From positions 160,001 to 224,000 of the forward strand of contig CAVOID010000004.1 in NCBI GenBank assembly GCA_963695875.1: a stretch of DNA of 64,000 bases, read 5' to 3'. The stretch is from an uncultured delta proteobacterium (lineage in GTDB: Bacteria; Desulfobacterota; Syntrophia; Syntrophales; UBA2185). The notes under the pieces were generated by a model that did not search any database, was not told the origin of the DNA, and worked only from the letters and a program-made list of their open reading frames with translations. The position numbers and the translations under genes are program-made. Shown piece after piece: positions 2,261 through 19,733 of the stretch (its first letter is position 1; each line of letters starts with the position of its first letter).

Positions 2261-2338
2261 TTCTTCCCATTTTGATCTTGACTTTTTACGACTGATTGAT
2301 TAAAAAACCACCTTCCAAATCGTTTATTCCAAAATGAT

Positions 2339-2413
2339 GGTCCCATCGTCTAGTGGTTAGGACGCTGGCCTCTCACGCCGGAAACTCGGGTTCAAGTCCC
2401 GGTGGGACCACCA
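2339..2413 (+). tRNA. tRNA-Glu (CTC)
   Basis: Acceptor stem GGTCCCA/TGGGACC, anticodon loop CT-CTC-AC, T-loop TTCAAGT, encoded CCA. Confidence 0.96.
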
Positions 2414-2679
2414 AAATAATAACTGATAGTTACAAAAAAATTTGTAGCTCATCCCCTTTTTTATTTTTCAGTTCCCAAATATTCCCAACAACAGGGGTAA
2501 TGCTTTGTAGGTGTTGACAATAACCATCCGCTTCCCATTTTCAACAAATATCGACCCACCCCCAGCAAAAATTACGGATTGTTATCATCTACCCGACATC
2601 CAGGCTATATAGGTTACGTCCACAGCACCAACTCTAACTATCAGTCAGTTTAGCCCCATAATAAGTTCCCTTGACCTTA

Positions 2680-3120
2680 TCACTTAACCAGCAGAACGGG
2701 ACACTTGGCTCCCCTCAAAACCTTATCTGCGACACTGCCAAGATGCTTAATCAAACCCTTTTTCCCGTGCGAAGCGATCACGATCAGGTCAATACCCTTG
2801 TCTTTTTGCTCTTTTAAAATTATCTCATAGGTATCGCCCTTTTTTACGTCAGAGATAATCTGCAGATCCTTTGATGCAGAGAGCATCTTCACTTCCTTTT
2901 TCAGTTTCTCCTCGGCAAACGCCATACTTTGCTTTTCGACCTGGTCCACGAGAGAGGCGTCCAGGCAATAATCCACGGCACACTGCATTATCTCGTCTAC
3001 CACATGCAGAAGATATATCTTGGATTTATGTTCTGACGCTATGTCCACAGCCTGCTTCAACGCCCTGTCGGAATATTCGGAAAAATCTGTTGGAACAAGA
3101 ATATTTTTCGGTGCAAACAT
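2680..3120 (-). CDS. Universal stress protein (UspA family)
   Basis: KNILVPTDFS...DLIVIASHG...LGSVADKVLRGAKCPVLLV. Confidence 0.93.
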   Translation of the reverse strand: MFAPKNILVPTDFSEYSDRALKQAVDIASEHKSKIYLLHVVDEIMQCAVDYCLDASLVDQVEKQSMAFAEEKLKKEVKMLSASKDLQIISDVKKGDTYEIILKEQKDKGIDLIVIASHGKKGLIKHLGSVADKVLRGAKCPVLLVK

Positions 3121-3309
3121 TTTTCAACCCTCCATACGTTTATACTAAAATTTAAATCATTATAAACCCCTATTCAACTTTAACCTTTACTTCCTTACTT
3201 TTGGCTTTCTCGCTCTTGGGCAAGTAGCCAATGATTTTATAACATTTTTATTTGTCATTTTTCCCCTCCTTATGGTTGCTTAATTTCCTGGTAATTACTC
3301 GATTAAATC

Positions 3310-3600
3310 TTACCCAACAATCACCTCGTAAAACTGAGGAGTCGGATGACCGTCAAGTAAGAGTCCAACCCGCATGCCAGCTTCATCATGGTCAGGGCTG
3401 GTGTGCATAGCCATAAAGGTCTCATAACTCTCGTGTTCTACAACGGCAGCGTAGTTACCTTGCTTTAAGGGTTTCAGGAGTCGCCGGTTGATGAACCCTT
3501 TATGCTTCGCCAACTCTTTATTTGACCAGGCAAACCACTTTCGAAACTCATCATCCTTTCCCGCCTTGATCGGTGGGAAATTGATAATAACCACAAACAT
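3310..3600 (-). CDS. Antibiotic biosynthesis monooxygenase (ABM)-family dimeric alpha/beta barrel protein
   Basis: Start at ATG 3600 after AGGAGG; MFVVIINF...GKDDEF...GFINRRLL...ESYETFMAMHTSPDH pattern. Confidence 0.7.
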   Translation of the reverse strand: MFVVIINFPPIKAGKDDEFRKWFAWSNKELAKHKGFINRRLLKPLKQGNYAAVVEHESYETFMAMHTSPDHDEAGMRVGLLLDGHPTPQFYEVIVG

Positions 3601-3647
3601 AACAGACACCTCCTTTTTCCTTTTCTCTTTTCTTTTTTTCGAAGTTT

Positions 3648-4193
3648 TCAACACAGATAAATTTCCTTCAATTCATGGAGAAGCTTGTGAAATTCTTCGT
3701 GGACACCCTCCCCAATTTTCTTGCGCTCCAAATCCTCAAAACCTTCCACCAACTCCCTCTGCTTTTTCTTCCCGAGAAGTCTATCGAATATGGGAAAAAG
3801 GACATTGTTTTCCTTCTGGATATGCTGGGTCATAAGGGCGATATACTTTTGGGCATTGGCTGTATATTCTACCCAGGTCAGTTCCTCAAACTTCTTCATC
3901 TGGGTGAGATCATGGTCCATGGCCCGCACATAGCTTCGGCCCTGGCTGTGCTCTCTCAGCAAGAGACCGATGAGCTTTCTCTCCATTGGGATAATGGCCG
4001 GAAATAGCAGGTATTCTTCTTTCCCGTGATGGCATTGATCGACGAAAATCTTAAAAAACTCCATGATCCTTTCCAGGTGGCCTAGATATGCTTTTCCCTT
4101 CGCTTCCATTTTGGTGCAGACCCTTTCCAAGATTTTCAGCATTAAGGCAATTCTCTCATGCTCTTCTTTCAACTGCTCCGCTGGGGTCATCAT
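3648..4193 (-). CDS. Hemerythrin/HHE cation-binding domain protein
   Basis: EH...HHGKEE.LLFP...EH...HIQKENNVLFP. Confidence 0.9.
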   Translation of the reverse strand: MMTPAEQLKEEHERIALMLKILERVCTKMEAKGKAYLGHLERIMEFFKIFVDQCHHGKEEYLLFPAIIPMERKLIGLLLREHSQGRSYVRAMDHDLTQMKKFEELTWVEYTANAQKYIALMTQHIQKENNVLFPIFDRLLGKKKQRELVEGFEDLERKKIGEGVHEEFHKLLHELKEIYLC

Positions 4194-4518
4194 TTCCTCC
4201 TTTATCTTTGGTACGTACTTTTATAATGCTAGCGACAAAGCTAAGGACGATACCATCAGCAATGGTTATACTTTTTATTCAAGAGCTTTTTGCTTCATCC
4301 GGCCAATCTCTGTCTGCATAAAGCATTAGAATCAAAATTCCATAAAATTGTCGCTTATTATTCGAAACCGTTACTGAAAAAATTTAATAAATAACTTGTC
4401 TTACTTGCAGAGCCCTCCTGGTGTGAATGACCTTGCCTTCGCTGCTACAATTACCCTTCCTGTCTCCAAAAGTGCTTTTTCGACAAAATCATACACCATT
4501 AATCCTCTTTTGATTTGT

Positions 4519-6792
4519 CTAGCCAAGTCTTCTGACATATAAATAGGTTTTTACAACGGCAATGAATAGCGGGATGACACCGAATACAATAAAGATCGCG
4601 TCAGCGGGGAGACGCGCCCATTCGATCAATGTTGATATCCTGCTGTCGAGAAATTCAGAACTCCGGGCATGCCAGTATCCGTTTTGAAGGACGTCCCATA
4701 GTTGGAGTACTCCTCCTGGGAAGAGATTGAGAAGAATCATCAAGGCGAGGCCGACATTAAGCGCCCAAAAGGAAACCCGTATGTATTTCTCCAGGTTAGC
4801 CCATCTATCTTCCGGCAGGACCTGCCTCATTGAGAATACCATAAAGGCAACGGCGAACATTCCGAAGACGCCCATAAATGCAGAGTGCGCGTGATTAGGT
4901 GTCAGGATAGTCCCCACTTCGAAATAACTCACGATGGGCATATTGATCAAAAACCCGAAAATACCGGCGCCAACGAAGTTCCAAAATCCCACGGCCGTGA
5001 GATAATAGAAGGTCCATTTGTGTGGAATGGAAATCTCTCTTCCGCACACGTCGCAGGTTCCTCTTGAAAGCTTGATGAAGTCCCAAGCATCAAGCGTAAG
5101 AAGGGTAAGCGGCACCACTTCCAGTGCAGAGAACATTGAGGCAAGAGCCATGGATATATTGGACTGACCTGTCCAGTACCAGTGGTGGCCTGTTCCAACA
5201 ATGCCTCCCGCAAGAAAGAGGATGGCATCGAGATAGATCACCCGTGTTGCCGTGATGCGTGTGACCATGCCGAGCCTGTAAAAAAGGACGGCAATCATGG
5301 CCGTCACAAAGAGCTCGAAGAAACCTTCTACCCACAGGTGAATGATCCAAAATCGCCACATATCGACAACTGAGAAATGACTCTTTCCTGTAAAGAAAAG
5401 AGCAGGCAAATAAAAGAGAGGGATGGCTGCGGCAGTCAGAAGAAAGAGAGAGGCAATCTCCCCTTCCTCTCTATCTTTTCTCAATGGTCCCACGATACGA
5501 AAAAGGAGGAAAAGCCAGATGAGTAACCCGATGACAAGCAAGAGCTGCCAGGCTCTTCCGAGGTCGAGATATTCCCATCCCTGGTGGCCAAACCAGAACC
5601 AGACCTTACCCGTAAACTGATACACTCCGAATAATTCACCAAAGAGACTGCCAAAGATGACGATAAGAAGTGCAAAAAATAGAATATTGATTCCTTTTGT
5701 CTGCCACTTTGTTTCAATGCTTCTTAATGCCGTGGCAAGAAAAATTCCGCCACCGACGTAGCATGTCGCAATCCAGAAAATCGCTGTCTGAAGATGCCAG
5801 GTGCGAAAGATGTTGCTTGATAAATATCTGGAAAAATCAAGACCGTAAAAACTCGACGGATCGGCACGATAGTGTGCAGTGGCGCCGCCCACGAGAACCT
5901 GCGCAAGAAAGAGAAGCATCGCTATGGCGAAGAATTTAATCGTTGCCTGCTGGCTTGCCGTGGCCTCTCCGGGAAGGAGCTTTGGGTGGTAATGATTACG
6001 CACTCCCTTCCACCCGAGGAAATCAAACTTGCCAAAGGCAAAAAGAACCGCTGCTGTACCTGCCAGAAGGGCGATGAGGCTGAGGGCGCTCCATAGAAAG
6101 GTATCGGCAGTGGGACGGTTCCCGACTGTAGGGTCATAAGGGAAATTGTTGGTGTAGGAAAATGATTTCCCCGGACGATTCGCGACAGAGGCCCAGGCCG
6201 TCCATGCAAAGAAGGCAGTGAGTTGCCTGATCTCTTCCGGCTCATGAATAAGCCCAGTCAGGAGCCCCCGATTGACCGCAGGATTGTAAAAGTAGTCCGC
6301 CCATTTTCTGATTTGACTGCGATAAGAAATCACCTCAGGTGTTGTAAAGGTAAGAAAGCCCGTTGCGGTATCATAGCGGTTTGTTTTGAGTAGTTGTTGA
6401 ACTTCCGCATTGAGGACAGATCTCTCAGCCTGCGTGAGGTTCTCGGCGGGACGGTGGAAAAGCACTCGGGAAAAATACGCCGCTGCATCAATTGCCAAGG
6501 TGTGCAGGTATTCAGCAGGAAAGTCAGGACCAAGGTAAGCCCCATGGCCCCAGATCGTTCCGTTTTCCATGAGACCATACTTCAGAAAGACCTCCTGGCC
6601 AGAGACGATGTCATTTCGGATGAAAATAGTCTCACCATCGGAGCTGATGACCTTCTCTGGAATTGGAGGTGAGTTCCCGGAGGTGGTGGCAGCAACCCAG
6701 ATCAGGATTGCAAATCCCAAAATGACAACTAGGAGAACGGACCGTTTCCACCAGGGCGAGAGTCTTTCAATATAGATTTCCTGATCGCTCAT
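4519..6792 (-). CDS. norB: Quinol-dependent nitric oxide reductase (qNor, single subunit)
   Basis: GTIWGHGAYLGPDF, YTNNFPYDP, RTWHLQ, HLWVEGFFE, GTGHHWYW, LEVVPL, HAHSA; 757 aa multi-TM protein. Confidence 0.95.
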   Translation of the reverse strand: MSDQEIYIERLSPWWKRSVLLVVILGFAILIWVAATTSGNSPPIPEKVISSDGETIFIRNDIVSGQEVFLKYGLMENGTIWGHGAYLGPDFPAEYLHTLAIDAAAYFSRVLFHRPAENLTQAERSVLNAEVQQLLKTNRYDTATGFLTFTTPEVISYRSQIRKWADYFYNPAVNRGLLTGLIHEPEEIRQLTAFFAWTAWASVANRPGKSFSYTNNFPYDPTVGNRPTADTFLWSALSLIALLAGTAAVLFAFGKFDFLGWKGVRNHYHPKLLPGEATASQQATIKFFAIAMLLFLAQVLVGGATAHYRADPSSFYGLDFSRYLSSNIFRTWHLQTAIFWIATCYVGGGIFLATALRSIETKWQTKGINILFFALLIVIFGSLFGELFGVYQFTGKVWFWFGHQGWEYLDLGRAWQLLLVIGLLIWLFLLFRIVGPLRKDREEGEIASLFLLTAAAIPLFYLPALFFTGKSHFSVVDMWRFWIIHLWVEGFFELFVTAMIAVLFYRLGMVTRITATRVIYLDAILFLAGGIVGTGHHWYWTGQSNISMALASMFSALEVVPLTLLTLDAWDFIKLSRGTCDVCGREISIPHKWTFYYLTAVGFWNFVGAGIFGFLINMPIVSYFEVGTILTPNHAHSAFMGVFGMFAVAFMVFSMRQVLPEDRWANLEKYIRVSFWALNVGLALMILLNLFPGGVLQLWDVLQNGYWHARSSEFLDSRISTLIEWARLPADAIFIVFGVIPLFIAVVKTYLYVRRLG

Positions 6793-6906
6793 TTATTTTA
6801 TTTATAATGGTGGTCATCCAAAATTTGGTATTTTTTCAATCATGTGTTTATGTCTTGACATAGAGCATATCCCATGGAATGAACAGTGAAAATCTTTTAA
6901 ACATTA

Positions 6907-7578
6907 CTATTCATGCCCGACATCTGCGGGACGAGAATCATCAAGAATCAGTCCCATCTTTGCCATGGCCGCGAGAGTGGAAGTGTAATCCTTGTGGACG
7001 ATGCCCCGGATACCCAATGACCCTGCCACATTGACAAACATTTCCCGGTCTTCGAGATAAACCACGTGCGCCGGGTGGACTTGGGCGATATCCAAAGCGA
7101 TCCGGTAAATGTCGGCGTCAGGTTTGCGGTAATGGACGAAACAGGAGGAGATGAAGAAATCGATGAAGTCGATCAGCCTGAATGTATGAATCCGGTAAGC
7201 GGTCAGTTCTTTCCCTTCGTTGCTTACCGCTGCCACCTTCAGTCCATACCGGGACTTGAGCCTACGGATAAAGTCGATCATGTCCGGGAACGGCTTTGAC
7301 TGGGCGAACATGAAGGCCTTGAAATCTTCCGGCTTAAATTGCCGTTCCTTATAGAACACCAGCCGGTACAGGTATTCATCAAGGCTCAGTTTACCTTCCT
7401 CGTATGTATCAAAAGTTAGGTGATGCCTTTCGTCCATTTCTTCGTAATCGAGACCAAAGACCTCCGCTGCCTGCATGCGCATTCTCCTGTCCCAGCCATT
7501 GGTAAGAATAACGTTCCCAATATCAAGGAAGAGATGTGTAATCCGCTCATGCTGCATATTATATATCTCTTTCTTCAT
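6907..7578 (-). CDS. HAD-superfamily hydrolase/phosphatase
   Basis: FLDIGNV motif I, SN motif II, RKPD and LEDR motifs. Confidence 0.88.
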   Translation of the reverse strand: MKKEIYNMQHERITHLFLDIGNVILTNGWDRRMRMQAAEVFGLDYEEMDERHHLTFDTYEEGKLSLDEYLYRLVFYKERQFKPEDFKAFMFAQSKPFPDMIDFIRRLKSRYGLKVAAVSNEGKELTAYRIHTFRLIDFIDFFISSCFVHYRKPDADIYRIALDIAQVHPAHVVYLEDREMFVNVAGSLGIRGIVHKDYTSTLAAMAKMGLILDDSRPADVGHE

Positions 7579-7725
7579 TCCTTCGTGGGAACGAGTTTTT
7601 GAGACATCACATGAGTGTATTGTTGATAATATTTTTCCTCTTCTCGGGGAATGTCAGATTGCCGAAAGTTGAGACTATCTAAAAACCGAACAGAAATTCT
7701 CACCCTGGCCTTCCTAGTTCACGAA

Positions 7726-7926
7726 TTAGAGAGCCCCTGGAGAATGCTTTTTCTTTGGTACATTGTTCATCCTCATTTTCAGATCTCTGATCTCAGCGTT
7801 TAGCCTCATGCAAGCTATCTCATACTCATCCCTGAGTTCGGGATCCAAAGATGGATTACTTAAAGCCAGCCTCGTGCAACTTCTGATGATCTCACATTCT
7901 TGAAGATAGCGTTTTAAATCTTCCAC
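7726..7926 (-). CDS. Small hypothetical protein
   Basis: 66-aa ORF with helical character; no recognised motif. Confidence 0.4.
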   Translation of the reverse strand: MEDLKRYLQECEIIRSCTRLALSNPSLDPELRDEYEIACMRLNAEIRDLKMRMNNVPKKKHSPGAL

Positions 7927-8392
7927 ATTTTTCGACTTCGCTATTTTCTTATATATTTCTTAAACCTCTTTCTAATATTGGAGAAATCAATCGATAAAAC
8001 AGATATATCCTTCAACTATCTTTTTGTTTACTGCATCAATATTATGCAGTGGGCGACGATTTCTAATATTTATTAAATTTACTTTGGCTGTTCAATGAAT
8101 GCAATAATCATAAAATAGAAGCATAATGGTAGGTAAAAAATGATGATAAAAACAGACTGAAGGTCATTAGCTGTCTCATAAATATAATTATGCTGTCACA
8201 GACGTGTTTATTGTGCGTATTGCTGAACTCAATAGTCTCCTTATTCTAATGTAATTAGAAGCTGAAAATCAGAGAAACCCCGATAGCATTCATAACAAAT
8301 TCCTATGTAGGTATAATTGAATAATCGGCGGCAATAATGTTGAAAGTTTACACTTAACCTTTATTGAACACAAATTGAGAAGGAGAACAACG

Positions 8393-8839
8393 ATGAAACA
8401 CAAACCCATTAAATTAAGATTCCTGTTTTTGGGTATTCTGGTTGCCGGTATTATGATTTTCGCTGCCACAATGGACGGCTTGTGCGCTGAGAAGATGTAC
8501 AAAAAGGCTCCCCCCGGAGGCAATTACAAAGAAGTCAGTTCCCTCGTAGCGCTTCCAAACTTCATTCCTGGCCTGGGGACACTATATGTGGATCCTGCAA
8601 CACTGCCGGCTGGACCGTTTCTAGCGTATGACCGCAAAGGCCAACTGGTGAGCACCGTCTACATGATTCCTCTCAAGGACATCAATGATCATAAGGAATT
8701 CAAGAATCTCAAAGTGGCTTCTGGAAAGGTGGATCACGTGGATATGTATTTTAACGCCGGACATCCCGGTGTACCTGAGCCTCATTACCATGTTATTCTA
8801 TGGTATATCTCTCCTGAAAAAGCGGCAGAAATGAAGTAA
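8393..8839 (+). CDS. Exported His-rich protein (DUF5602/TTHB210-like), partner of the cupredoxin
   Basis: AGGAG then ATG 8393; signal peptide; DHVD...GHPGVPEPHYH motif. Confidence 0.65.
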   Translation: MKHKPIKLRFLFLGILVAGIMIFAATMDGLCAEKMYKKAPPGGNYKEVSSLVALPNFIPGLGTLYVDPATLPAGPFLAYDRKGQLVSTVYMIPLKDINDHKEFKNLKVASGKVDHVDMYFNAGHPGVPEPHYHVILWYISPEKAAEMK

Positions 8840-8852
8840 TCGGAGAGGAGTA

Positions 8853-9437
8853 ATGCAGACGCGAAGGGAGTTCCTTGCGACCAGCGGAGTCGTCTTGAGC
8901 AGCCTCGTCGTATCAGATATACTGCAGTCTGTTTGGCCCTTGTCAAGCGGTGCTGAGTTGTCACGTGCAGCCAGTGCGGCGGGGATCGTTAAAATTGTGA
9001 TGCAGAGCGATCAGACAGGCGCCAATGTGTGGTTTGACCCTATCGGGATATATATCCATCCTGGGCAGACGGTCCGCTGGATTGTGGGCGAGAATGTCCA
9101 CACCACAACAGCATATCATCCGCGGAACGGCAATCACTCACTGAGAATCCCTGAGACAGCCGTTCCGTGGAACTCCGGGTATCTGGTGAATCCTGGCGAG
9201 CACTTCGAGGTAACGCTTGAGACTGAAGGAGTGTACGATTATTACTGTATACCCCATGAGATGTCGGGAATGGTGGGCAGGATTATCGTCGGGAAAGCCA
9301 CCGGACCCGGGGCATTGCCGTTCGATTACTTCAAAGGCAGGGGCGAGACAGCCAATTGGTTACCTGTCCCGGAGGCGGCGCAGAAGGCATTTCCGAGCAT
9401 TGAGCGGATTATGCGTGAAAAGATCGTCCGACGATGA
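8853..9437 (+). CDS. Tat-exported type-1 blue copper protein (plastocyanin/halocyanin-like cupredoxin)
   Basis: TRREFL Tat motif; H(NVHT)...YYCIPHEMSGM.G copper ligand loop. Confidence 0.9.
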   Translation: MQTRREFLATSGVVLSSLVVSDILQSVWPLSSGAELSRAASAAGIVKIVMQSDQTGANVWFDPIGIYIHPGQTVRWIVGENVHTTTAYHPRNGNHSLRIPETAVPWNSGYLVNPGEHFEVTLETEGVYDYYCIPHEMSGMVGRIIVGKATGPGALPFDYFKGRGETANWLPVPEAAQKAFPSIERIMREKIVRR

Positions 9438-9513
9438 TTGACACGGACGATCTATATCTAAAAATAGTCCTTATCCTTTTAGGATATAAGAATCTCCTGT
9501 TAAGGATCTTCTC

Positions 9514-11421
9514 ATGAAAAAGGAATCGGCAAGCATACCGTTGGTAATTCCTCCTGATTCTGCCAAAGCTGGAATGACAGAAGTTTCTGCGCCATCCGTT
9601 TCTGATACAGCCGGTGGTGTAACAATAGACTTCCATTCCGCCAAATTCAATCGTACAGACGATCTGAACGACATTTCCAGAAACTACCGATTCTTTGAGC
9701 CCCTCGATGGCATTATTACCGCAGACATGCGTCATCAGACGGAGCGCCTGCGCGAGGAGAGCTGCTTAGATTCTCCTGCACGTGATGCACCCATATCGAG
9801 AGAAAAAGAAATAAAGGTAAAAAGAGATGAGCCTGAGCCTATTGAAGATCTATCGTCTCTCACCGTGATATCTGAGGGCCGAACGTTGATCGTAGATACG
9901 GATGCCGCGCGCGCCGCCAAATGCGGCGAGATCCTCAGTAGAGAGCGGTTGACCTGCACCATGGTGGTAACAAAAAAGGCAGAGCAAGATGTGCCTCTTT
10001 CCTGGTTCAACCGGCCGGCGTTAATTGAGGCCGATGACGTATCTATTACCGGGGCCTTCGGCGGTTTTGCCGCAGTGGTGACCGTGAAGGGATATCAAAG
10101 GCACCTAACGGAACGATTTGATCTTGTCCTTGATCTTCAGCCCACTCCGTTCTTTGCGGGGAGACGCCTGCCTGTGGGGTATTACGCACCCGGGCAAAAC
10201 CCGGAGGATCTCCGTGATGTACTGGCGGAACTTCCCGAGATGAGAGGCCGATTTGAAAAGCCGCAATTTACGCTTTTTCAGAAAAGCCGCTGTCTTCATG
10301 GCAAGTCACGCAACCGTGATTGCCGCCGGTGTCTGGAGGTCTGTCCCTTTGGTGCGATCCAGACGGATGGTCGGGAAATTTCCGTCAATCATTACCTTTG
10401 TCAGGGCTGCTGCTGCTGCGCCCTCGTCTGCCCTGCGGACGCGATTTGTATGGTGCACCCGTCACAGGCGGAACTTCTAGACATCTTGCAACGCTCCCTT
10501 GAGAGCTGCAAGGCAAACGCTGTTTTCCCGCAGACCCTGGTTATCTCTGACTCGCAAAACGCCGAGGGCAACGGAAAGAATGACAGCGTAGTCAATTTCG
10601 AGGTGGAAGAAATCGGCTACGTAGGACTGGATGTAGTCCTGGCCGCCATCTCTTATGGCGCCCACAGGGTTGTGGTGGCCTGCGGACAGCAGAACCCGCC
10701 CAAGATCAGAGAGGCCGTGGCATGGCAGACACAAATGGCCCGCGCTATACTGAAGGGGCTCGACATGCCTGAAGGCAAGGTCAGGTTTGTCGTCATACCT
10801 CCAGAGGACGATGATTCTATAGAGGAGGTTTTAAGGATGGACGGTCCCGATGTGCAATTTAACAATTCTCCGATGCCACCCTTGGCAGCTTCTTCCGTGA
10901 ACGCCAGGCGGGCTCTTGTCCGCCTGGCCGTGCAGCATCTTTATGACAAATCCGGCGCTAAACGACCGTGGTTTGTCCTGCCGGCAGGTTCTCCGTTCGG
11001 CACAGTGGCCGTAGATCACAACACCTGTACGTTGTGCATGGCGTGTGCAACTGCCTGTCCTTCAGGGGCGCTAGCCGCAGGCGGTGATGTGCCGCGGCTT
11101 CTGTTTATCGAATCACGCTGCCATCAGTGCGGCCTTTGCGAGGAGACATGCCCTGAGCACGCGATTCAACTACAGACAAGGATGCTGTGTGACCCTGAAG
11201 CGCTTGAAGCCCGGGTAGTGCTGCATGAGGCCGATGCGTTCCGATGTATTAAATGCGATTCCCCTTTCGCCCCGAAAGCCATGGTAAACCGCATGCAAGA
11301 AAGACTCAAGGGCCACTGGATGTACACGAACGAACGGCAATTACGCCGGTTGCAGATGTGCCGCGTCTGCCGCACCCGTGATGCCCTCATGTCCGAGGAT
11401 ATGAAATCATGGAATCGGTAA
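9514..11421 (+). CDS. FDH-associated multi-[4Fe-4S] ferredoxin-like protein
   Basis: Several CxxCxxCxxxCP motifs (CRRCLEVCP, CTLCMACATACP, CHQCGLCEETCP); first gene of the fdh cluster. Confidence 0.85.
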   Translation: MKKESASIPLVIPPDSAKAGMTEVSAPSVSDTAGGVTIDFHSAKFNRTDDLNDISRNYRFFEPLDGIITADMRHQTERLREESCLDSPARDAPISREKEIKVKRDEPEPIEDLSSLTVISEGRTLIVDTDAARAAKCGEILSRERLTCTMVVTKKAEQDVPLSWFNRPALIEADDVSITGAFGGFAAVVTVKGYQRHLTERFDLVLDLQPTPFFAGRRLPVGYYAPGQNPEDLRDVLAELPEMRGRFEKPQFTLFQKSRCLHGKSRNRDCRRCLEVCPFGAIQTDGREISVNHYLCQGCCCCALVCPADAICMVHPSQAELLDILQRSLESCKANAVFPQTLVISDSQNAEGNGKNDSVVNFEVEEIGYVGLDVVLAAISYGAHRVVVACGQQNPPKIREAVAWQTQMARAILKGLDMPEGKVRFVVIPPEDDDSIEEVLRMDGPDVQFNNSPMPPLAASSVNARRALVRLAVQHLYDKSGAKRPWFVLPAGSPFGTVAVDHNTCTLCMACATACPSGALAAGGDVPRLLFIESRCHQCGLCEETCPEHAIQLQTRMLCDPEALEARVVLHEADAFRCIKCDSPFAPKAMVNRMQERLKGHWMYTNERQLRRLQMCRVCRTRDALMSEDMKSWNR

Positions 11422-12262: not shown

Positions 12263-12294
12263 CGGGCCGACTCTGTGTTATGGAGGTATGACAC

Positions 12295-15183
12295 ATGAAA
12301 AAATTCAATAAAAAGTGGTTGCAAAAGATATCTTCCGAACCTGCCTCTCCTAAATACATGGACCGGAGGACGTTTATGAAGGTAAGCGGCGCGGCGCTGG
12401 GAAGCGGCGCCCTGATAGGGCTTCTGCCGTTATCCTGCATGCGGCAGGCCACGGTGGAGGAAAAGAGAAATTTCCCGAGACCGGAACTGCAGTCGGAATA
12501 CCGGCGGACGATCTGCACCCACTGCTCTGTCGGATGCGGCATCATCGCTGAACTTCAGAACGGCGTGTGGGTCGGCCAGGAGCCGGACTACGAGTCGCCT
12601 TTCAATCTCGGCGGCCATTGCGCCAAAGGGGCAGCGGCCCGAAGCCACGGTTTCGGCCACAGGCGCGTGAAGTTTCCCATGAAACTTGTCAACGGCGCCT
12701 GGACGCGCCTCTCCTGGGACGAGGCCATCAACGAGATCGGCGACAAACTCTTAAAGATCCGTCAGGAATCGGGACCGGACGCGCTTTTCTTCTGCGGGTC
12801 CTCCAAGGCAAGCAACGAGGGGGCCTATCTCCAGGGGAAATTCGCCGCCCTGTGGGGCACGAACAACGTGGACAACCAGGCGCGTATCTGCCATTCCACC
12901 ACCGTGGACGGCGTGGCAAACACCTGGGGCTACGGCGCCATGACCAATTCTTACAACGACATGCGAAACAGCAAGGCCATGCTGTTTCTTGGCAGCAATG
13001 CAGCCGAGGCCCACCCGGTGGCCATGCAGCAAATTCTCCGCGCCAAGGAGGGCGGATCGAAGATGATTGTCGTGGACCCCCGCTTCACCCGCACGGCGGC
13101 CCACGCAGACATTTACGCGAGGATCCGCTCCGGAACCGATATCCCCTTCATTTACGGTCTGCTCTGGCACATCTTCAAGAACGGATGGGAAGACAAGGAC
13201 TATATCGCAAGGCGGGTGTACGCCATGGACGACATCCGCAAGGAAGTGGAGAAATGGCCACCCGAAGAGGTTGAAAACGTCACCGGCATTCCTAAAGACA
13301 AGGTATATGAGATCGCCATGACCATGGCGAAAAACCGGCCGAGCACCATCGTCTGGTGCATGGGCGTTACCCAGCATCATATAGCCAGTCATACAGTGCG
13401 GCTGTTCTGTATCTTGCAGCTTGCCCTGGGGAACATCGGTATGTCAGGCGGCGGCGCCAATATCTTCCGCGGTCATGACAACGTCCAGGGGGCAACCGAC
13501 GTGGGGCCCAATTGCCACACTCTTTCGTGCTACTACGGCCTTGCCGAAGGCTCTTGGAAACACTGGGCCGAAGTTTGGGGCGTCGATTACGAATGGATTA
13601 AATCCCGCTTCGACATGAGCCGGCAATACGACGCGGGCGGGGGGAAAATGGCGTACACCATGAACATCCCCGGCATACCCGTTTCGCGCTGGATCGACGG
13701 TGTGATGGAGGACAAGAATAACCTCTCGCAGAAAGACAATATCCGCGCAGTTTTCTTCCAGGGCCATGCCTGCAACAGCCAGACGCGTGGGGTGCAGATG
13801 AAACAGGCGCTCGAAAAGCTGGATATGCTCGTGATCTCCGATCCCCATCCGACCCATATGGCCGTGATGAGCGACCGCAAGAACGACACCTATCTGCTGC
13901 CCACCGCGACCCAGTATGAGACCTACGGTACGGCCACTGCATCGAACCGAGCCCTGCAATGGCGCGACAAGATCATCGAACCGCTCTATGAATCCCTGCC
14001 GGACCATACCATTTTGTACAAGCTGGCAAGGAAGCTGGGCTTCGAAAAGGAGATGTTCAAGAACATCAAGGTCACGAATGACGAGCCTCTCATCGAAGAC
14101 GTCCTGCGCGAAATCAACCGTGGCGCCTGGACGATCGGATATACGGGACAGAGCCCGGAGCGCCTCAAACTGCACGCACAACACCGGGGCACCTTCAATC
14201 CCCTCACCTTGAAGGCCGAGGGCGGTCCCTGCAAGGGCGACTATTACGGTCTGCCCTGGCCCTGCTGGGGCAAACCGGAGATGAAGCATCCGGGTACCCC
14301 CATATTGTACGACCCCAGCAAACCCGTGGCGGAAGGCGGTCTGGTCTTTCGGGCTGCGTGGGGAACAGACTACAACGGTCAAAGCCTGCTGGCCGACGGC
14401 GTCTATTCAAAGGGCTCGGCTATCAAGGACGGCTATCCGGAATTTACTTCTGACATCCTCAAGAAGCTCGGCTGGTGGGATGAGCTGACGCCGGAGGAGA
14501 AGAAGGCGGCCGAGGGGAGAAACTGGAAGACGGATCTTTCGGGAGGCATCCAGCGGGTAGTCATCAAACACGGATGCGCTCCTTTCGGCAACGGCAGGGC
14601 CCGTTGCAACGTCTGGACATATCCCGATCCCATTCCCCTCCATCGCGAGCCGCTGTACACGCCCCGATTCGACCTGGTGAAGAAATATCCGACCTATCCG
14701 GACCGCAAGGCGTACTGGCGGCTGCCCACCCGCTACCAGTCGATTCAGTCGGTAAACCACAGCGCAAAATATCCTCTGATTTTCACGAGCGGCCGTCTGG
14801 TCGAATACGAAGGCGGCGGCGAGGAGGAGCGCTCCGATCCGTGGCTGGCCAAACTTCGGCCGGAGATGTTCGCCGAAATCAACCCCAAAGATGCGGCTGA
14901 TGCCGGTATTTTCGACGGCAGGTACATCTGGCTGGAAGGCGCCGAGGGCGGCAGGATCAAGGTGCGCGCCCTGGTCACCAAACGAGTGGGTCCCGGCACA
15001 GTCTTCACACCCTTCCATTTCGGCGGCTGGTTCCAGGGCAAGGATCTCTACGACCGCTACCCGGAAGGGACAGCCCCGTATGTTCGGGGCGAGGCATGCA
15101 ATACCGCCACCACCTACGGATACGATTCTGTGACCCAGATGCAGGAAACCAAAGCAACGCTCTGCCGGATAACGCCGGCATAA
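12295..15183 (+). CDS. fdhA: Periplasmic Mo/W-bisPGD formate dehydrogenase alpha subunit, Cys type
   Basis: DRRTFMK Tat signal; CTHCSVGC...C Fe-S motif; ARICHST (Cys ligand, His); RGHDNVQG. Confidence 0.93.
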   Translation: MKKFNKKWLQKISSEPASPKYMDRRTFMKVSGAALGSGALIGLLPLSCMRQATVEEKRNFPRPELQSEYRRTICTHCSVGCGIIAELQNGVWVGQEPDYESPFNLGGHCAKGAAARSHGFGHRRVKFPMKLVNGAWTRLSWDEAINEIGDKLLKIRQESGPDALFFCGSSKASNEGAYLQGKFAALWGTNNVDNQARICHSTTVDGVANTWGYGAMTNSYNDMRNSKAMLFLGSNAAEAHPVAMQQILRAKEGGSKMIVVDPRFTRTAAHADIYARIRSGTDIPFIYGLLWHIFKNGWEDKDYIARRVYAMDDIRKEVEKWPPEEVENVTGIPKDKVYEIAMTMAKNRPSTIVWCMGVTQHHIASHTVRLFCILQLALGNIGMSGGGANIFRGHDNVQGATDVGPNCHTLSCYYGLAEGSWKHWAEVWGVDYEWIKSRFDMSRQYDAGGGKMAYTMNIPGIPVSRWIDGVMEDKNNLSQKDNIRAVFFQGHACNSQTRGVQMKQALEKLDMLVISDPHPTHMAVMSDRKNDTYLLPTATQYETYGTATASNRALQWRDKIIEPLYESLPDHTILYKLARKLGFEKEMFKNIKVTNDEPLIEDVLREINRGAWTIGYTGQSPERLKLHAQHRGTFNPLTLKAEGGPCKGDYYGLPWPCWGKPEMKHPGTPILYDPSKPVAEGGLVFRAAWGTDYNGQSLLADGVYSKGSAIKDGYPEFTSDILKKLGWWDELTPEEKKAAEGRNWKTDLSGGIQRVVIKHGCAPFGNGRARCNVWTYPDPIPLHREPLYTPRFDLVKKYPTYPDRKAYWRLPTRYQSIQSVNHSAKYPLIFTSGRLVEYEGGGEEERSDPWLAKLRPEMFAEINPKDAADAGIFDGRYIWLEGAEGGRIKVRALVTKRVGPGTVFTPFHFGGWFQGKDLYDRYPEGTAPYVRGEACNTATTYGYDSVTQMQETKATLCRITPA

Positions 15184-15198
15184 AGAAGGAGGCGAATC

Positions 15199-15808
15199 AT
15201 GGCAAGGATGAAATTTCTCTGTGACACCGAACGCTGCATTGATTGCAATGCTTGCGTGACGGCGTGCAATAATGAACACGATGTCCCCTGGGGCATCAAC
15301 CGTCGGCACGTGGTAACCCTGAATGACGGCGAGAGCGGTGAAAAGTCCATTTCCGTGGCCTGCATGCACTGCACGGATGCACCGTGTGCGGCCGTCTGTC
15401 CCGTCGATTGTTTCTACTCTACCCCTGACGGCATCGTGCTGCACGACAAGGACCTGTGCATCGGCTGCGGCTATTGCTTCTACGCCTGTCCGTTCGGCGC
15501 ACCGCAGTTCCCGGAAGAGAACTCCTTCGCTGCCCGCGGCAAGATGGACAAGTGCACCTTCTGCGCTGGTGGGCCTTTGCCGGACAGGTCTGTCGAAGAA
15601 TACAAGCTGTACGGACGCAACCGGATTGCCGAGGGCAAACTGCCTCTGTGCGCGGAGATGTGCGCCACCAAGGCCCTCCTGGGCGGAGACGGCGATGTCG
15701 TTTCCGACATCTACATCCAGCGCGTGATCAAGCGGGGCGGCAGGCCTGATACCTGGGGATGGGGTACGGCTTACAATTTCAAGTCCGAGAAGGAGAAGAA
15801 GTCCATGA
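15199..15808 (+). CDS. fdhB: Formate dehydrogenase beta (Fe-S) subunit; stop codon probably lost to a 1-nt insertion
   Basis: Four Fe-S motifs (CIDCNACVTAC, CMHCTDAPC, CIGCGYCFYACP, KCTFC...C); ends GWGTAY as homologs do. Confidence 0.9.
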
Positions 15809-15993
15809 AACGCATCTTGTTTATGTTGACTGCATTAGCCGTTCTTGCGGGGCTTGTCGGATGTTCTTCCGAGCCCCGGAACGTAACCATGCACGAGCCC
15901 GGAGTTTACAAGGGCGCGAAGGATCCCCTGCTGGCATTAAAGAATCAGCAGGAGTTGATCGATCGCCTCAAGCTGGTGCAAACCGATCGCTGA
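15805..15993 (+). CDS. Small lipoprotein of the fdh cluster
   Basis: Own SD AAGGAG; MKRILFMLTALAVLAGLVG-C lipobox; appears in frame with fdhB in this sequence. Confidence 0.7.
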   Translation: MKRILFMLTALAVLAGLVGCSSEPRNVTMHEPGVYKGAKDPLLALKNQQELIDRLKLVQTDR

Positions 15994-16008
15994 TCAGAGG
16001 AGGAGTTT

Positions 16009-17013
16009 ATGGCAACGCAAACCATAAAACGGACCGTCGGCTTATTTGTTCTGGGCACGCTGCTTCTTCTCCTGATGAGCGGGATTCTTTACTGGCAGGC
16101 CATCGGCGCCGATGTCAGCAATCCGCGGGCCAACTTCTGGCGCGTGGTCAGGGAAGGTATTCCCGGGATTCACGAAGGTTTCAACCGCCGGCCATAAGAT
16201 CTTGATCCTGAACGGCGGTGAGAACTGGCGCGAGATTCGCAACAGCTTCCTCATGCGCGTTCTCCCAGTGGATCATCACCATGGCACTGGTGGTCATGGG
16301 CCTGTTCTACATGCGTGTTGGTCAGGACAAACTGGAGAAACCGCGGTCCGGGGTGAAGATTGAGCGCTATCACCCGTGGGAGCGGATTCTGCACTGGTAT
16401 ACAGCCGTGCTGTTCGTAATCATGGCCATCACCGGGCTGAGCCTTCTCCTGGGGCGGACTCACTCTGATACCGAGTTTTTGGCCACTCGGCCGATCTCGG
16501 TGTACCTGCAGGCGTCAAAGGTGCTGCACAATTATTGCGGGCCCCTGCTTCTCGTCGGAATCTTTTTGGAATTCATTATCTGGGTTCGCTACAACATCCC
16601 CAAGAAGATGGATCTGGACTGGTTTAAGAACATGGGCGGCCTGCTCGGCAGTGGACCCCGGCCCCATACGGGTAAGGTCAATGGCGGCGAGAAGGGATGG
16701 TTCTGGCTTATGGCCATTTTCGGGATCGCTGTGGGGGTGACCGGCGTACTGCTTGATTTCCCCATCTGGGGGCAGACCCGCTTCACCATGCAGATCTCCC
16801 ACGTCGATTCACGCCTCGATGGCGGTACTGTTCGTCACCGTCTCCTTCGGCCATATTTACATGGGAACCTGGGCGTCGAGGGCGTCTTTGAGGGCATGTG
16901 GACCGGTTACGTCGATGCCGGTCTGGGCTCAGCAGCACAGCGACCTGTGGTATGAAGAAAAGATGCGGGAGAAGGGAGAAAAACCTGCTTCCTTCCCGGA
17001 GGCTTCATCATGA
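16009..17013 (+). CDS. fdhC: Formate dehydrogenase gamma (cytochrome b) subunit, interrupted by multiple 1-nt indels
   Basis: Fragments in three frames join into FdnI-like sequence: ERILHW, KVLHNYCG, GKVNGGEK, GHIYMGT, MWTGYVD, WAQQHSDLW. Confidence 0.85.
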
Positions 17014-17675
17014 CTATGGAATTTGGACTCCTGTTACTCGAATCCGTGCTGTTAGTTGCTACTGTCATACTGCTGGTCTACGGCATTCACGAGGGAAAGC
17101 GAAGAGACGACCTGCTCAGGGAAGTCGGAAGGGCTACGAAGGTCCTCACGCGGCAGGAATACTTCTTCTCCATCATGAACGCGATGCTTGATGCGAAACA
17201 GGAAATAATCGGATGCATTACCGGCACACCTCCGTCAGGTGATGATATGAAGATGACAAGACATATTGCCGATGCTATCGAGGACATGACCAGAAAAGGG
17301 GTGAGCATCAAGTACCTTCTACCGAAGTTCCCTGACCGGCTGCAGATCGGTGTTCAATATACGAAAGCGGGAGCTGAGGTCCGCTTCAGCAGTTGTCTCA
17401 TGGTCCATAGTATCCGTTATATTGTTGTTGATGAGAAAATTGTGGTGATTGGCATTCCGGAAAGTGTAGGTGAAAGGGAAGCGACGAAAAAGGGATATAC
17501 GATACCATCCGAGGGACTCGCTGTTGTCCTGAAGAATTATTTTAATGATTGTGAAAAACAGACGAGTCTGAAAGAATATCTGTCGGAAGTAATCGAGCAG
17601 ACCGGTGCGACAGTCGAACATCTGGCAAGGGAGTTCCATTTGGATGAAAAGGAACTGAAGAAACTTCTTCAATGA
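17010..17675 (+). CDS. Membrane-anchored hypothetical protein with PLD/TrmB-like domain and possible C-terminal HTH
   Basis: N-terminal TM helix; AKQEI...RKGVSIKYLL...GAEVRF...RYIVVDEKIVVIG pattern; ATGA overlap with fdhC. Confidence 0.6.
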   Translation: MTMEFGLLLLESVLLVATVILLVYGIHEGKRRDDLLREVGRATKVLTRQEYFFSIMNAMLDAKQEIIGCITGTPPSGDDMKMTRHIADAIEDMTRKGVSIKYLLPKFPDRLQIGVQYTKAGAEVRFSSCLMVHSIRYIVVDEKIVVIGIPESVGEREATKKGYTIPSEGLAVVLKNYFNDCEKQTSLKEYLSEVIEQTGATVEHLAREFHLDEKELKKLLQ

Positions 17676-17812
17676 GAAAATCATGCGTCGCAGTGAGCCT
17701 CCATTAATATTCATAACAGATCATACGGCCCACTAGGAATTCCAAATAAAACCATACGCAATAAATTGCGGCTTGCGAGAAGCCGCAAATTCCTTGATTG
17801 GAGAGTGCGCTT

Positions 17813-18202
17813 ATGAATTGGCTCGAAAAGTACGCGGACCACGCTTACGCCATGTTGCGCATCATGGCGGGATTCATGTTCTCGTTCCACGGTGCCCAGA
17901 AAATTCTGGGGGTGCTTTCCGAATTCCAACCACCGGTGGGGTCCCAACTCTGGATCGGCGGAATCATCGAACTCTTGGGTGGGCTGGCGGTGATGCTTGG
18001 ATTTAAAGCGCACGTGGCGGCTTTTCTCTGCAGCGGCATGATGGCCGTGGCTTATTTCCAATTCCACTGGAAGTTCCAAATCGGACCCAATTTCTTTCCG
18101 GCAATTAACAAAGGCGAGTTGGCCGTTCTCTACTGTTTTGTTTTCCTCTACATTGCCTGTCGAGGCGGGGTGAAATGGAGCCTGGACAAAAAGGACCAAT
18201 AA
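17813..18202 (+). CDS. DoxX family membrane protein
   Basis: LRIMAGFMFSFHGAQK...GIIELLGG...AAFLCSG.MAVAYF...GELAVLY. Confidence 0.9.
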   Translation: MNWLEKYADHAYAMLRIMAGFMFSFHGAQKILGVLSEFQPPVGSQLWIGGIIELLGGLAVMLGFKAHVAAFLCSGMMAVAYFQFHWKFQIGPNFFPAINKGELAVLYCFVFLYIACRGGVKWSLDKKDQ

Positions 18203-18518
18203 CTTATAAAAACAACTTGCATCACTTTTACCTCGTTCTTCCCGTTATTTACAAGTCTAGAGGTAATGAAGTTATCCAAGCTTTCTCCTGTAATGATCAC
18301 CTCTATCGAGACCCTGAATATTCCTGGGATGGCTGCATTCAGTCATAACGCTTCATGGACAATTGGTCTGTCTGAATTGTGCATGAATTGTGATCTAAAA
18401 GGTCTTTATGATGGCCAATCGACTAAAAGTGATTTCATTTATCAATAGGACAGTTGTTCTGATACATCCCTTTGATGATCACCAGAATCAGACTTCACAT
18501 TTTGCGATAATTTTTCCA

Positions 18519-18547
18519 TTGACACACAAGACCGTTTTTCTTATACT
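18519..18547 (+). promoter_or_regulatory. sigma70-type promoter
   Basis: TTGACA-17 nt-TATACT upstream of ORF 18678. Confidence 0.6.
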
Positions 18548-18677
18548 ATGTCCATGAAAAAGGAAGTTTTTATCAAAAAACAAAATCAAATTTTCAATGG
18601 CAATCCAACACATCATTTTGATATAATCTTAAACTCGAAATCGGGTGGGTAAAAATAATAAGGCTAAGGAGGAAAGT

Positions 18678-19163
18678 ATGAAAAAGGTAACAATATGGAT
18701 TGTGGTCGTAGCAGCGACTTTAATGTTGAATATGATGTTTGCGCAAACATCATTTGCTCAGGCATCGCAGGCGGCAGGGTCCAACGTATCAAGGGGTGCC
18801 TGGAGTTTGGGAGTTCCAGGATTTGATGTCTTCACAGGATTTACGGGACTGGAAGCGATAGTGGTCGAACCTGGTACGGTAAAGAAAATTGAGCCGATGG
18901 CCGGTGTGAAAGACGGTCTGCAGATGAAATTTGTGACAGATCAGGGCAACAACTATGTCGTCTATATGGGACCCAAGTGGTTCATTGAAAATCAGAAGAT
19001 TAAATTTATGGCCGGCGACAAGGTTGAAGTAAGGGGTAAGAAGTATGGTAGCGGTATCATTGCCTCGGAAATAAGCAAAGGCGATTGGACCATGAAACTT
19101 CGCAACGAGGAAGATGGTATGCCAAGTTGGGAATGCTGCTTCCCCCGATCAGTAAAAAAATAA
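18678..19163 (+). CDS. Exported OB-fold protein (MamS/MamX-like domain)
   Basis: AAGGAGG then ATG; signal peptide; VYMGPKWF...GDKVEVRG...LR...G.P.W pattern. Confidence 0.55.
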   Translation: MKKVTIWIVVVAATLMLNMMFAQTSFAQASQAAGSNVSRGAWSLGVPGFDVFTGFTGLEAIVVEPGTVKKIEPMAGVKDGLQMKFVTDQGNNYVVYMGPKWFIENQKIKFMAGDKVEVRGKKYGSGIIASEISKGDWTMKLRNEEDGMPSWECCFPRSVKK

Positions 19164-19288
19164 TAAACAAGCGACCCACGACCCACCCAATTTTTGAGCT
19201 GGCTCAATGTATTATAATAAAGGAGTTTTAGACATACTAATTGTAAAATATTTTACCCCGTAAGAATAATGAGGTTGATGATGTTGTA

Positions 19289-19396
19289 TTCTCTGCAGCT
19301 GATAATGTTTCAAGTATCACAGTGCAGGAACTGAAGGTTAAGATGGATAAAGGTGAGGAACTGGTGATTCTTGATATCCGGGCGGCGCTTTTCTAA
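19289..19396 (+). pseudogene. Rhodanese-domain gene fragment
   Basis: Reads FSAADNVSSITVQELKVKMDKGEELVILDIRAALF*, the N-terminal rhodanese motif, with no start codon and no catalytic loop. Confidence 0.6.
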
Positions 19397-19438
19397 AGCG
19401 CACCCTGATGATTTCAAGTACATGAAATATATGCGACA

Positions 19439-19483
19439 CCTCTCACGCCGGAAACTCGGGTTCAAGTCCACTTGGCACTACCA
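19439..19483 (+). repeat. Displaced tRNA-Glu 3' fragment (att-like direct repeat)
   Basis: cctctcacgccggaaactcgggttcaagtcc is identical to 2369-2399. Confidence 0.9.
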
Positions 19484-19733
19484 AAAATCTCTGGGCTTGC
19501 ATAAATAAAATCCCTTCCTGCCGACAATGTCTATTTAAGTCCTGACCGAATCTTCGACTTTACTTGCTGCTGCTTGCGATCAATAAATAGTTGGCATCAG
19601 CAATTACGATTTGAAATGCATAATACGGATACAATTCTTGCGTGTTGAAATATATTGAGATGTTAATAACACTAAAACTGTATACCTAGGCCCGCGGCGC
19701 AGGGAAAATCCTGCCGGACTCTTCCCTGTGAGA

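Follow-up and report, generated by a model that had tools for sequence, protein, structure and literature searches.

The concept of the cis-mobilizable element (CIME) is reportedly due to original work by Pavlovic et al. in 2004. CIMEs of streptococcal hosts keep both attachment sites, attL and attR, have no genes for integration or transfer, and lie at sites where further elements accrete in tandem (PMC5704250, in the sections of that paper used here). Islands in tRNA and tmRNA genes, as collected by Islander, start immediately 3′ of an intact, regenerated tRNA gene and carry a displaced fragment of its 3′ end, in direct orientation, at their other end; in the part of the Islander paper drawn on, the definition includes a tyrosine integrase gene inside (PMC4383910). 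The closest published parallel that we found to the locus described here, in literature on general concepts, is the ssrA island array of Dehalococcoides, an anaerobe in which islands with direct 3′-end repeats and respiratory genes follow one another in tandem after a single small-RNA gene. An integration module adjoins attL in 16 of these islands, whereas 15 of the 31 lack one, and the authors suggest, in the sections cited, that the module-less islands are CIMEs or fixed remnants (PMC3146451). Here we analyze a 17-kb interval from an uncultured Syntrophales bacterium that lies between a tRNA-Glu(CTC) gene and a displaced copy of the 3′ part of that gene. The interval belongs to a 64-kb stretch of DNA, hereafter the window (G000:C4:160001-224000), of a metagenome-assembled genome (MAG; G000, 2.86 Mb in 16 contigs, 82.6% complete, 3.7% contamination). 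The repeat probably represents the relic attL and attR of a site that has been used for integration repeatedly, and the interval a decayed, fixed, CIME-like remnant that was built in more than one step. As a kind, such an island is ordinary and well known in bacteria. The tRNA gene, its left neighbour and its displaced copy are located as follows:

830-2260, plus strand: gltX, glutamyl-tRNA synthetase, the conserved left flank (Pfam tRNA-synt_1c and Anticodon_2; 93-94% identity in the same-genus genomes G001 and G002).
2339-2413, plus strand: intact tRNA-Glu(CTC), attL side (ARAGORN; Rfam tRNA, 62.6 bits over 2339-2410).
19439-19483, plus strand: displaced 3′ fragment of tRNA-Glu, attR side, chimeric (repeat search and comparison with the tRNA variants of the family).

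The tRNA gene starts 78 bp 3′ of gltX, and its positions 31-61 (2369-2399) recur at 19439-19469 in direct orientation, with 31 of 31 bases identical. Position 31 is the final base in the anticodon stem's 5′ strand, and from there the repeat reaches the tRNA's 3′ end, the repeated part being positions 31-75 (2369-2413). Beyond the 31-bp core there are five mismatches in 10 positions, followed by ACCA and AAAA common to both copies; over the extent of the tRNA the fragment is identical at 31/31 and then at 9/14 positions, while 2369-2416 matches 19439-19486 at 43 of 48, making this the longest repeat within the window (repeat family D1). Searched with up to three mismatches, the 31-mer occurs at exactly two sites in the 2.86-Mb assembly (no match for the reversed control), and by our own arithmetic about 4e-10 exact 31-mer pairs would be expected by chance in 64 kb. 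All five mismatches fall within the last 14 of the 45 positions (p = 0.0016 under random placement, likewise our own arithmetic), which argues for a sharp boundary like a recombination joint and not for even decay. The second copy is not called as a tRNA by ARAGORN or Rfam and folds no better than shuffled sequence (z = -0.26). More degenerate tRNA fragments were absent from 2414-19438, where the best local score (25) equals the best of 20 shuffles. A sequence-only reading of this DNA had described the 31-bp repeat at these positions, with five mismatches leading to ACCA, and repeat search, ARAGORN and Rfam bear this out to the base.

The interval shares with the Islander islands its start immediately 3′ of an intact tRNA gene and its displaced direct fragment, and differs from them, as they are described in the part of the source cited, in having no tyrosine integrase and in having a chimeric fragment whose identity ends after 31 bp. 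With CIMEs it has in common the retained attL and attR, the missing integration and transfer genes and a site with tandem accretion; it differs from those in the sections cited in that its descent from an integrative and conjugative element (ICE) or an integrative mobilizable element (IME) is presumed, the 3′ part of its attR has diverged, its mobilisability is putative, and its host is an uncultured member of the Syntrophales. Compared with the Dehalococcoides array, where the text used gives tmRNA as the target, a 20-bp repeat and a serine recombinase (CcrB-like), the target here is tRNA-Glu(CTC), about 45 bp of the tRNA are repeated, and the associated integrase belongs to the tyrosine recombinases.

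To place the site in context, we compared 22 species-level Syntrophales genomes of the family and added Smithella MAGs as outside relatives. Except for one (G007, complete in a single contig), all of these genomes are MAGs in fragments, for which reason intact elements may be under-assembled. G000, G001 and G002 make up genus g1, and this genus is the nearest level of comparison, the set holding no genome of the same species; G012 and G009 belong to genus g4 and G008 to genus g7. A tRNA-Glu(CTC) gene follows gltX in all 10 relatives scanned at the locus. Fragments of tRNA-Glu(CTC), counted if not called as a tRNA by ARAGORN or if lacking the 5′ half by blastn, are present in at least one copy in 11 of the 22 family genomes. 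This count derives from a pattern search that gave at least two copies in 11 genomes; G019, with a more diverged copy, was added, and G006 was left out because its copy sits at base 1 of a contig and could be the tRNA itself, split between contigs. All long fragments begin at tRNA position 29-36, and the 5′ boundary type of the window is found in 10 other family genomes. Genome comparison shows the gltX-tRNA-Glu(CTC) locus to be a recurrent integration site in this Syntrophales family.

The DNA that follows the tRNA varies in extent and content. In g4 the tRNA lies 1.6 kb from the orthologues of the open reading frames (ORFs) at 21320-21715 and 21728-23875 of the window, and in g7 it lies 2.5 kb from the orthologue of 21728-23875, compared with 19 kb in the window. 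In genus g6 the orthologous flank genes are 36-66 kb from the tRNA, about 30 kb of which is a collinear g6 core block, and the variable DNA directly after the tRNA measures 6 kb (G007), 10 kb (G011) or 34 kb (G019). Within g1 the DNA directly after the tRNA differs among all three genomes, G001 and G002 being on broken contigs, and homology to the window resumes at 19652 (G002) and 19705 (G001). Joining the G001 and G002 contigs across the hotspot gave no overlap between tRNA-side and flank-side contigs, the only common sequence being the fragments and an arm of about 24 bp that belongs to the two fragments of G002.

At six loci (window, G002, G003, G007, G016 and G019) the tRNA and the first direct fragment share a contig, which gives six intervals. 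They measure 17.0 kb in the window, 4.3 kb in G003, 3.6 kb in G016, 10.2 kb in G002 (thiolase, SDR, CoA transferases and a sigma-54 activator), 1.9 kb in G007 (DNA glycosylase and a partial MsrA) and 23.7 kb in G019 (ars genes, methylmalonyl-CoA mutase and three types of insertion sequence). None of the six has a match to PF00589, suggesting that loss of the integrase, and decay with it, is the common fate at this site, as described for CIMEs and Dehalococcoides islands in the sections cited above. Variable DNA is also present beyond the fragments in G002, G007 and G019. G016 has an array of two long and two short fragments within 10 kb, and G002 has two fragments, one at the end of its 10.2-kb interval; the other, on a second contig, copies 45 bp exactly and precedes the conserved right flank by 5.4 kb. 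The two G002 fragments (L080 316-390 and L039 446-520) share the upstream arm of about 24 bp and are 92% identical over 75 bp with the fragment included, which suggests either two integrations of related elements or a duplication. An inverted copy of tRNA-Glu positions 32-75 was observed in G015 (C236; L124 4543-4796), 136 bp downstream of the intact tRNA and near a contig end; such a copy may stem from an inversion between att sites, and it was left out of the intervals.

An integrase that uses such a site could be traced from G010, where one contig (C170) opens within an integrase gene, the last codons of which overlap a tRNA-Glu fragment in reverse complement. In the family, the genes of relatives of this integrase meet a tRNA gene (tRNA-Met, tRNA-Leu or tRNA-Arg) with 3′ end against 3′ end, the two being on opposite strands. 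In a wider scan, 20 of 33 loci with such relatives had an opposite-strand tRNA no more than about 170 bp from the int end; five of these 20 have tRNA-Glu(CTC), and four of the five are the orthologous yceD-gltX-tRNA-Glu locus of Smithella MAGs. One of the Smithella contigs, G041:C91, holds a complete element with 32 kb between the tRNA and a 47-bp tRNA fragment, and its integrase is 73% identical over 52 aa to the C-terminus of the G010 integrase. After the tRNA come the 378-aa integrase, three small or unknown ORFs including a RepA-like one, the TrwC relaxase (923 aa) and a GGDEF protein. About 20 kb of metabolic genes separate these from a DUF6088-AbiEii pair and, last, the fragment; among the metabolic genes are a methyltransferase/corrinoid set and genes for acyl-CoA ligase, dehydrogenase, hydratase, thiolase and CoA transferases. 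The GC content is 49-52% in this cargo and 35-42% at the mobility end. The G041:C91 element is an integrative mobilizable element.

The window resembles this Smithella element in its orthologous site, in the extent of the repeat, which starts at position 29 in G041 and 31 in the window and reaches the 3′ end in both, in its GC-richer metabolic cargo and in the far-end fragment. The cargo genes of the two are unrelated, and the integrase, RepA-like and TrwC genes beside the tRNA and the AbiEii pair beside the fragment are found in the Smithella element only. Where an IME of this int-RepA-TrwC type has its integrase abutting the tRNA's 3′ end, the window has usp, 266 bp further on; the target and the duplicated extent match. 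The sequence-only reading had taken the repeat for an attL/attR pair of the kind left by tyrosine integrases, a view strengthened by the fragments in half of the family genomes, the near-empty g4 and g7 sites and the Smithella element.

Several other observations concern integrases and fragments in these genomes. The stretch between two tRNA-Glu fragments on the G010 contig (C170; L116 635-4844) holds a TOTE gene (AEP-TOTE, helicase and PLD; 1012 aa) and a Fic-domain gene, and is a small defence island at the tRNA-Glu hotspot. The closest full-length relative of the G010 integrase (79%), on G016:C70 (L127 1742-1780), adjoins a fragment that resembles the 3′ half of tRNA-Glu(TTC), with no full tRNA near; this fragment is either an attP-like site or a relic at the other Glu isoacceptor. 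Integrases 62-64% identical to the query were found on short contigs binned as methanogen MAGs (L158 and L159; Methanobacteriota, Methanocellaceae), that of L158 adjoining a bacterial-type tRNA-Glu(CTC) 91% identical to the window's. These contigs are probably mis-binned DNA from a syntrophic partner, the alternative being transfer between partners. An integrase on the gltX contig of G003 (C34; L117 14213-15776) was dropped as a lead, as it lies directly after tRNA-Ala(CGC) and not tRNA-Glu; it is P4-like (Arm-DNA-bind_3 and Phage_int_M). The window, too, has a tRNA-Ala(CGC) gene (37780-37855), whose 3′ end is not repeated there, and the G009 copy lies about 13 kb beyond the gene for the 715-aa right-flank protein. 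A G018 integrase lies 13 kb downstream of tRNA-Glu, past a type I restriction-modification set and at the contig end; it falls outside the tRNA-Glu subfamily and has no fragment beside it, and any link of it to the site is tentative.

The interval itself is devoid of recognizable mobility genes. Pfam and NCBIfam gave no recombinase, transposase, relaxase or phage family among the scanned island ORFs, and tblastn of eight integrases from related sites against the whole window gave nothing below E = 0.2. The mobility proteins of G041 (integrase, RepA-like protein and relaxase) matched neither the window nor the other integrase-less intervals at E ≤ 0.01. The sequence-only reading had called the island integrase-less, which these searches confirm, and had proposed to look elsewhere in the genome for a tyrosine integrase aimed at tRNA-Glu. 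That scan gave no cognate integrase: the six PF00589 matches of the genome are on contigs C5, C8, C9, C11 and C12, with none on C4, and a homologue of the G010 integrase piece was not found in the 82.6% complete G000 at E ≤ 1e-5. The interval is not classed as an IME here, since searches for the integrase and the relaxase that define one came back negative.

The fragment is a chimera of tRNA-Glu(CTC) variants, of which there are three in the family. Type A (g1 and most of g6) ends in CGGTGGGACCACCA, type B (g2, g3, g5 and Smithella) in CCGTGGGACTACCA and type C (g4) in CCTTGGGACTACCA, while the window fragment ends in ACTTGGCACTACCA. The intact tRNA of the window is of type A, identical to that of G001, G002 and several g6 genomes. 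The first 31 bp of the fragment are also of type A; the following 14 bp are nearer to type C, with which they agree at all three positions where A and C differ. A single-gene tree of GltX puts g1 together with g3, g4 and g7 (91/80 support) and keeps g6 separate (97/95). One scenario compatible with these sequences is that an older tRNA of type B/C-like kind had its 3′ half replaced by an element-borne type-A half, and that a second exchange would then have taken place within the fragment.

The genes and segments between and beyond the two tRNA sequences are the following:

2414-2679, no strand: 266-bp spacer with no coding remnant, at the place of the int end in an intact Smithella-type element.
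2680-3120, minus strand: Usp, universal stress protein (Pfam Usp).
3310-3654, minus strand: ABM-like protein (Pfam ABM).
3648-4193, minus strand: hemerythrin-domain protein (Pfam Hemerythrin).
4519-6792, minus strand: quinol-type NO reductase, qNOR (Pfam NorB_cytochrome_c-like and COX1).
6907-7578, minus strand: HAD-family hydrolase (Pfam Hydrolase, HAD_2; 75% identical in G002 contig C59).
8375-8839, plus strand: TTHB210-like protein (Pfam).
8853-9437, plus strand: cupredoxin (Pfam).
9514-17675, plus strand: formate-dehydrogenase-type (FDH) operon, high GC (NCBIfam; GC 51-60%), made up of the next six entries.
9514-11421, plus strand: polyferredoxin.
11409-12068, plus strand: TorD-like chaperone.
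12295-15183, plus strand: Mo-bisPGD alpha subunit (molybdopterin oxidoreductase), 962 aa; the best model, Fdh-alpha, gives 454 bits, below its cut-off of 666.
15199-15993, plus strand: FDH3 beta (NCBIfam FDH3_beta, 334.9 bits; cut-off 240).
16218-16955, plus strand: cytochrome b gamma (NCBIfam FDH gamma, 118.0; cut-off 115.85).
17010-17675, plus strand: conserved 221-aa ORF, the end of the FDH operon.
17798-18202, plus strand: 134-aa ORF, multi-copy in relatives, no NCBIfam match.
18645-19163, plus strand: 172-aa secreted-looking protein (o172), in one of four paralogous modules in G000.
19283-19385, plus strand: 5′ remnant (about 30 codons) of a rhodanese-like gene, where homology to the paralogous modules stops.
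19386-19438, no strand: 53-bp spacer from the truncation point to the fragment, a possible element-arm remnant.
19484-19651, no strand: 168 bp unique to G000, between the fragment and the resumed same-genus homology.
19734-23875, minus strand: right flank, with an 80-aa ORF, HU, a 174-aa ORF, a 131-aa ORF and a 715-aa MFS/spermidine-synthase-like protein.

The sequence-only reading had called this cargo redox and stress metabolism rather than phage genes, and the Pfam and NCBIfam assignments agree. The 266-bp spacer has no similarity to integrases, and a 277-bp stretch after the tRNA was ruled out as a repeat element, as it is unique in G000. The 53-bp spacer does not resemble the fragments' upstream arms in G002 or G007, and may be a remnant of an element arm. 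The ORF of FDH3 beta (264 aa) overlaps the next ORF (15759-16205) by 235 bp, the beta model matches only residues 2-180, the G002 homologue aligns across two frames, and contigs from other samples show single-base deletions nearby (15185 and 16159); the region 15199-16205 may contain a frameshift or have a wrongly called boundary.

The cargo is mosaic, its blocks having different relatives. The Usp-ABM-hemerythrin-qNOR block is syntenic, with 84-87% DNA identity, in the g6 genomes G016, G014 and G020, and the FDH operon is 81-86% identical in DNA to operons at other loci of seven family genomes. In G002, G007 and G019 the FDH operon has the TTHB210-like/cupredoxin pair and an o172 paralogue beside it, in other gene orders, and window positions 17755-18220 have 86-90% matches at several loci of g6 genomes. 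As one piece, the 17-kb unit was found in none of 40 relatives. The o172-rhodanese module occurs in four copies in G000 with 81-87% DNA identity (window 18597-19385; G000:C11:57250-58098, C5:210451-211328 and C15:40374-41239) and in many copies in relatives. The rhodanese gene is truncated in the window copy and the C5 copy, compared with 101-102 aa encoded by the intact paralogues; homology to all three paralogous modules stops at 19383-19385, indicating that the rhodanese gene was cut 53 bp before the fragment. The synteny around the G002:C59 and G016:C52 clusters gave no former location of the cargo in G000, the matches to their flanks being scattered over several contigs.

Similarities of the cargo run contrary to those of the flanks. 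Identity to the same-genus G002 is 78% for qNOR, 60% for polyferredoxin and 73% for the TorD-like protein, versus 87.5-89.5%, 74-76.5% and 82-86%, respectively, to g6. In the flanks, GltX, HU and the 715-aa protein share 86-95% identity with g1 as against 79-85% with g6, the right-flank proteins as a group reaching 81-96% in G001/G002 and 70-85% in g6. No such inversion in favour of g6 is seen for the TTHB210-like protein or the FDH alpha subunit. By sequence similarity, the inverted pattern points to a putative exchange between genera, in either direction. Composition was less informative: GC is 42-50% up to about 8.5 kb, 51-60% at 9-17 kb and 40-49% in the flanks. A GC profile across the borders had been suggested as a check on foreign origin, and we reject the jump at 9.5-17 kb as such a sign, since the homologous FDH operons of relatives across the family share the composition.

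The att structure, the recurrence of the site, its intact counterpart, the missing mobility genes and the mosaic cargo are shown by the sequences, and they would fit together in the following scheme. One or more integrative mobilizable elements would integrate site-specifically into tRNA-Glu(CTC), in the 3′ half of the gene, which stretches from the anticodon loop to its end. Such an element, when intact, would have the 3′ end of its tyrosine integrase gene abutting the opposite-strand tRNA, followed by RepA-like and TrwC relaxase genes, metabolic cargo and the displaced fragment. In the window the mobility module would have been completely lost and the right end remodelled by at least one more recombination or deletion, leaving a fixed, integrase-less segment of the flexible genome with a qNOR nitric-oxide-stress block, a cupredoxin and an FDH operon. 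We infer that the cargo, or part of it, came with such an element, as well as the order of these events and the immobility of the segment today. It is somewhat more likely than not that the 17 kb was assembled in several steps; arrival as a single payload is the less likely course. The earlier claim that everything between the repeats arrived at this site is supported as regards the att pair, and this support does not carry over to arrival in one element, in view of the mosaic cargo, the truncated rhodanese gene, the chimeric fragment and the variability past the fragment.

A number of points weigh against this scheme. The near-empty g4 and g7 sites, with a tRNA 1.6-2.5 kb from right-flank genes the closest to the proposed empty site among the genomes compared, belong to other genera, and the DNA adjoining their tRNA differs from the window. 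Same-genus homology restarts 170-220 bp past the fragment and not at it. The T-stem halves of the fragment cannot pair with each other, so it is not a simple displaced native end, and an extra event must be assumed. No integrase, RepA-like or relaxase relic is present in the window, and descent therefore rests on the att scar and analogy. The integrases of G010 and G018 are at contig ends, and MAG assembly may under-represent intact elements. The GC jump does not point to a recent arrival, as the homologous operons in relatives, at 81-86% DNA identity, share the composition. Lastly, the loci of the cargo blocks in relatives (g6 and G002) have no tRNA fragment where they can be examined, and the blocks could have entered the hotspot by ordinary recombination. 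This last point leads to an account that we consider unlikely, in which the fragment is the relic attR of an older, mostly deleted element and the cargo came later by homologous or illegitimate recombination, for example via the o172-rhodanese modules. The differing orders of the cargo blocks at non-tRNA loci, the four o172 modules of G000 and the one beside the FDH operon in each of G002, G007 and G019, the rhodanese gene truncated beside a chimeric fragment, the lack of any mobility-gene relic and the variable DNA past the fragments of those same three relatives would all be explained. However, the intact Smithella element makes clear that elements of this type normally carry metabolic cargo on this scale (about 20 kb, GC-richer), and the 10.2-kb interval of G002 has thiolase and OB-fold genes distantly like the Smithella payload (24-29% identity). 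Moreover, the cargo is nearer to g6 than to its own genus, as is the type-A tRNA 3′ half, which fits joint arrival.

Present-day mobility of the interval is unlikely. It would be maintained if the interval were a CIME or mobilizable island moved in trans or in cis by a tRNA-Glu integrase from elsewhere or from an incoming element. In favour of this, the core is identical at both ends, including the anticodon-loop region; integration into fragments, not into the tRNA alone, occurs in the family (the G010 integrase lies beside a fragment), and cis-mobilisation of CIMEs is documented in the sections of PMC5704250 used here. We nevertheless regard continued mobility of this kind as very improbable, as the 3′ part of the fragment has diverged, the unit recurs in one piece in none of the relatives searched, and G000, as far as it is complete, has no homologue of the tRNA-Glu integrase. 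The sequence-only reading had left a choice between a lost integrase and mobilisation in trans; the former is favoured, and the latter gained no support.

An assembly or binning artefact, with the repeat causing a wrong join and the cargo not truly lying between the tRNA and the right flank, is the remotest of the explanations considered. The MAG has its share of contamination, and its cargo is nearer to another genus than its flanks are. The best public runs contained at most 39% of sampled words. The raw-read run gave no coverage, and the unitigs over 1300-21200 were short and broke at the repeat; neither a joint of about 2413 to about 19484 nor a circle junction was seen in these unitigs (X1, X2, X3 and X21), which are too fragmentary for a test. 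Against an artefact, the tRNA-cargo-fragment layout is present on single contigs in G002, G003, G007 (the complete genome), G016, G019 and the Smithella G041, and a contig from an independent study spans 19471-20129, so that the diverged fragment end and its junction with the flank are real. At 31 bp, the repeat is also below the k-mer sizes and read lengths on which assembly joins usually depend.

We thus retain the view of a relic att pair enclosing a decayed, fixed remnant. The value of the island is local, in that the gltX-tRNA-Glu(CTC) locus is marked as a recurrent site in an uncultured peat and sediment family of Syntrophales, and that an integrase and relaxase element type using this site is identified. 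For annotation, tRNA fragments can delimit flexible regions of MAGs even after the loss of all mobility genes. The FDH-type operon may relate to interspecies formate transfer in syntrophs, the qNOR block points to nitrosative stress, and the similarity pattern of the genes in the flexible stretch suggests exchange between genera. A broader and speculative extension, to which we give only a small chance, is that the site would be a shared docking bay for whole energy-metabolism modules among syntrophic Syntrophales, served by the int-RepA-TrwC family, with integrase-less segments re-mobilised in cis or in trans and each integration overwriting the 3′ half of the tRNA. The modules exchanged would then be formate dehydrogenase, NO reductase, beta-oxidation and methyltransferase sets. 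The sequence of tRNA-Glu would in that case track the traffic of elements and not descent, type A being common to g1 and g6 although GltX places g1 with genera of types B and C.

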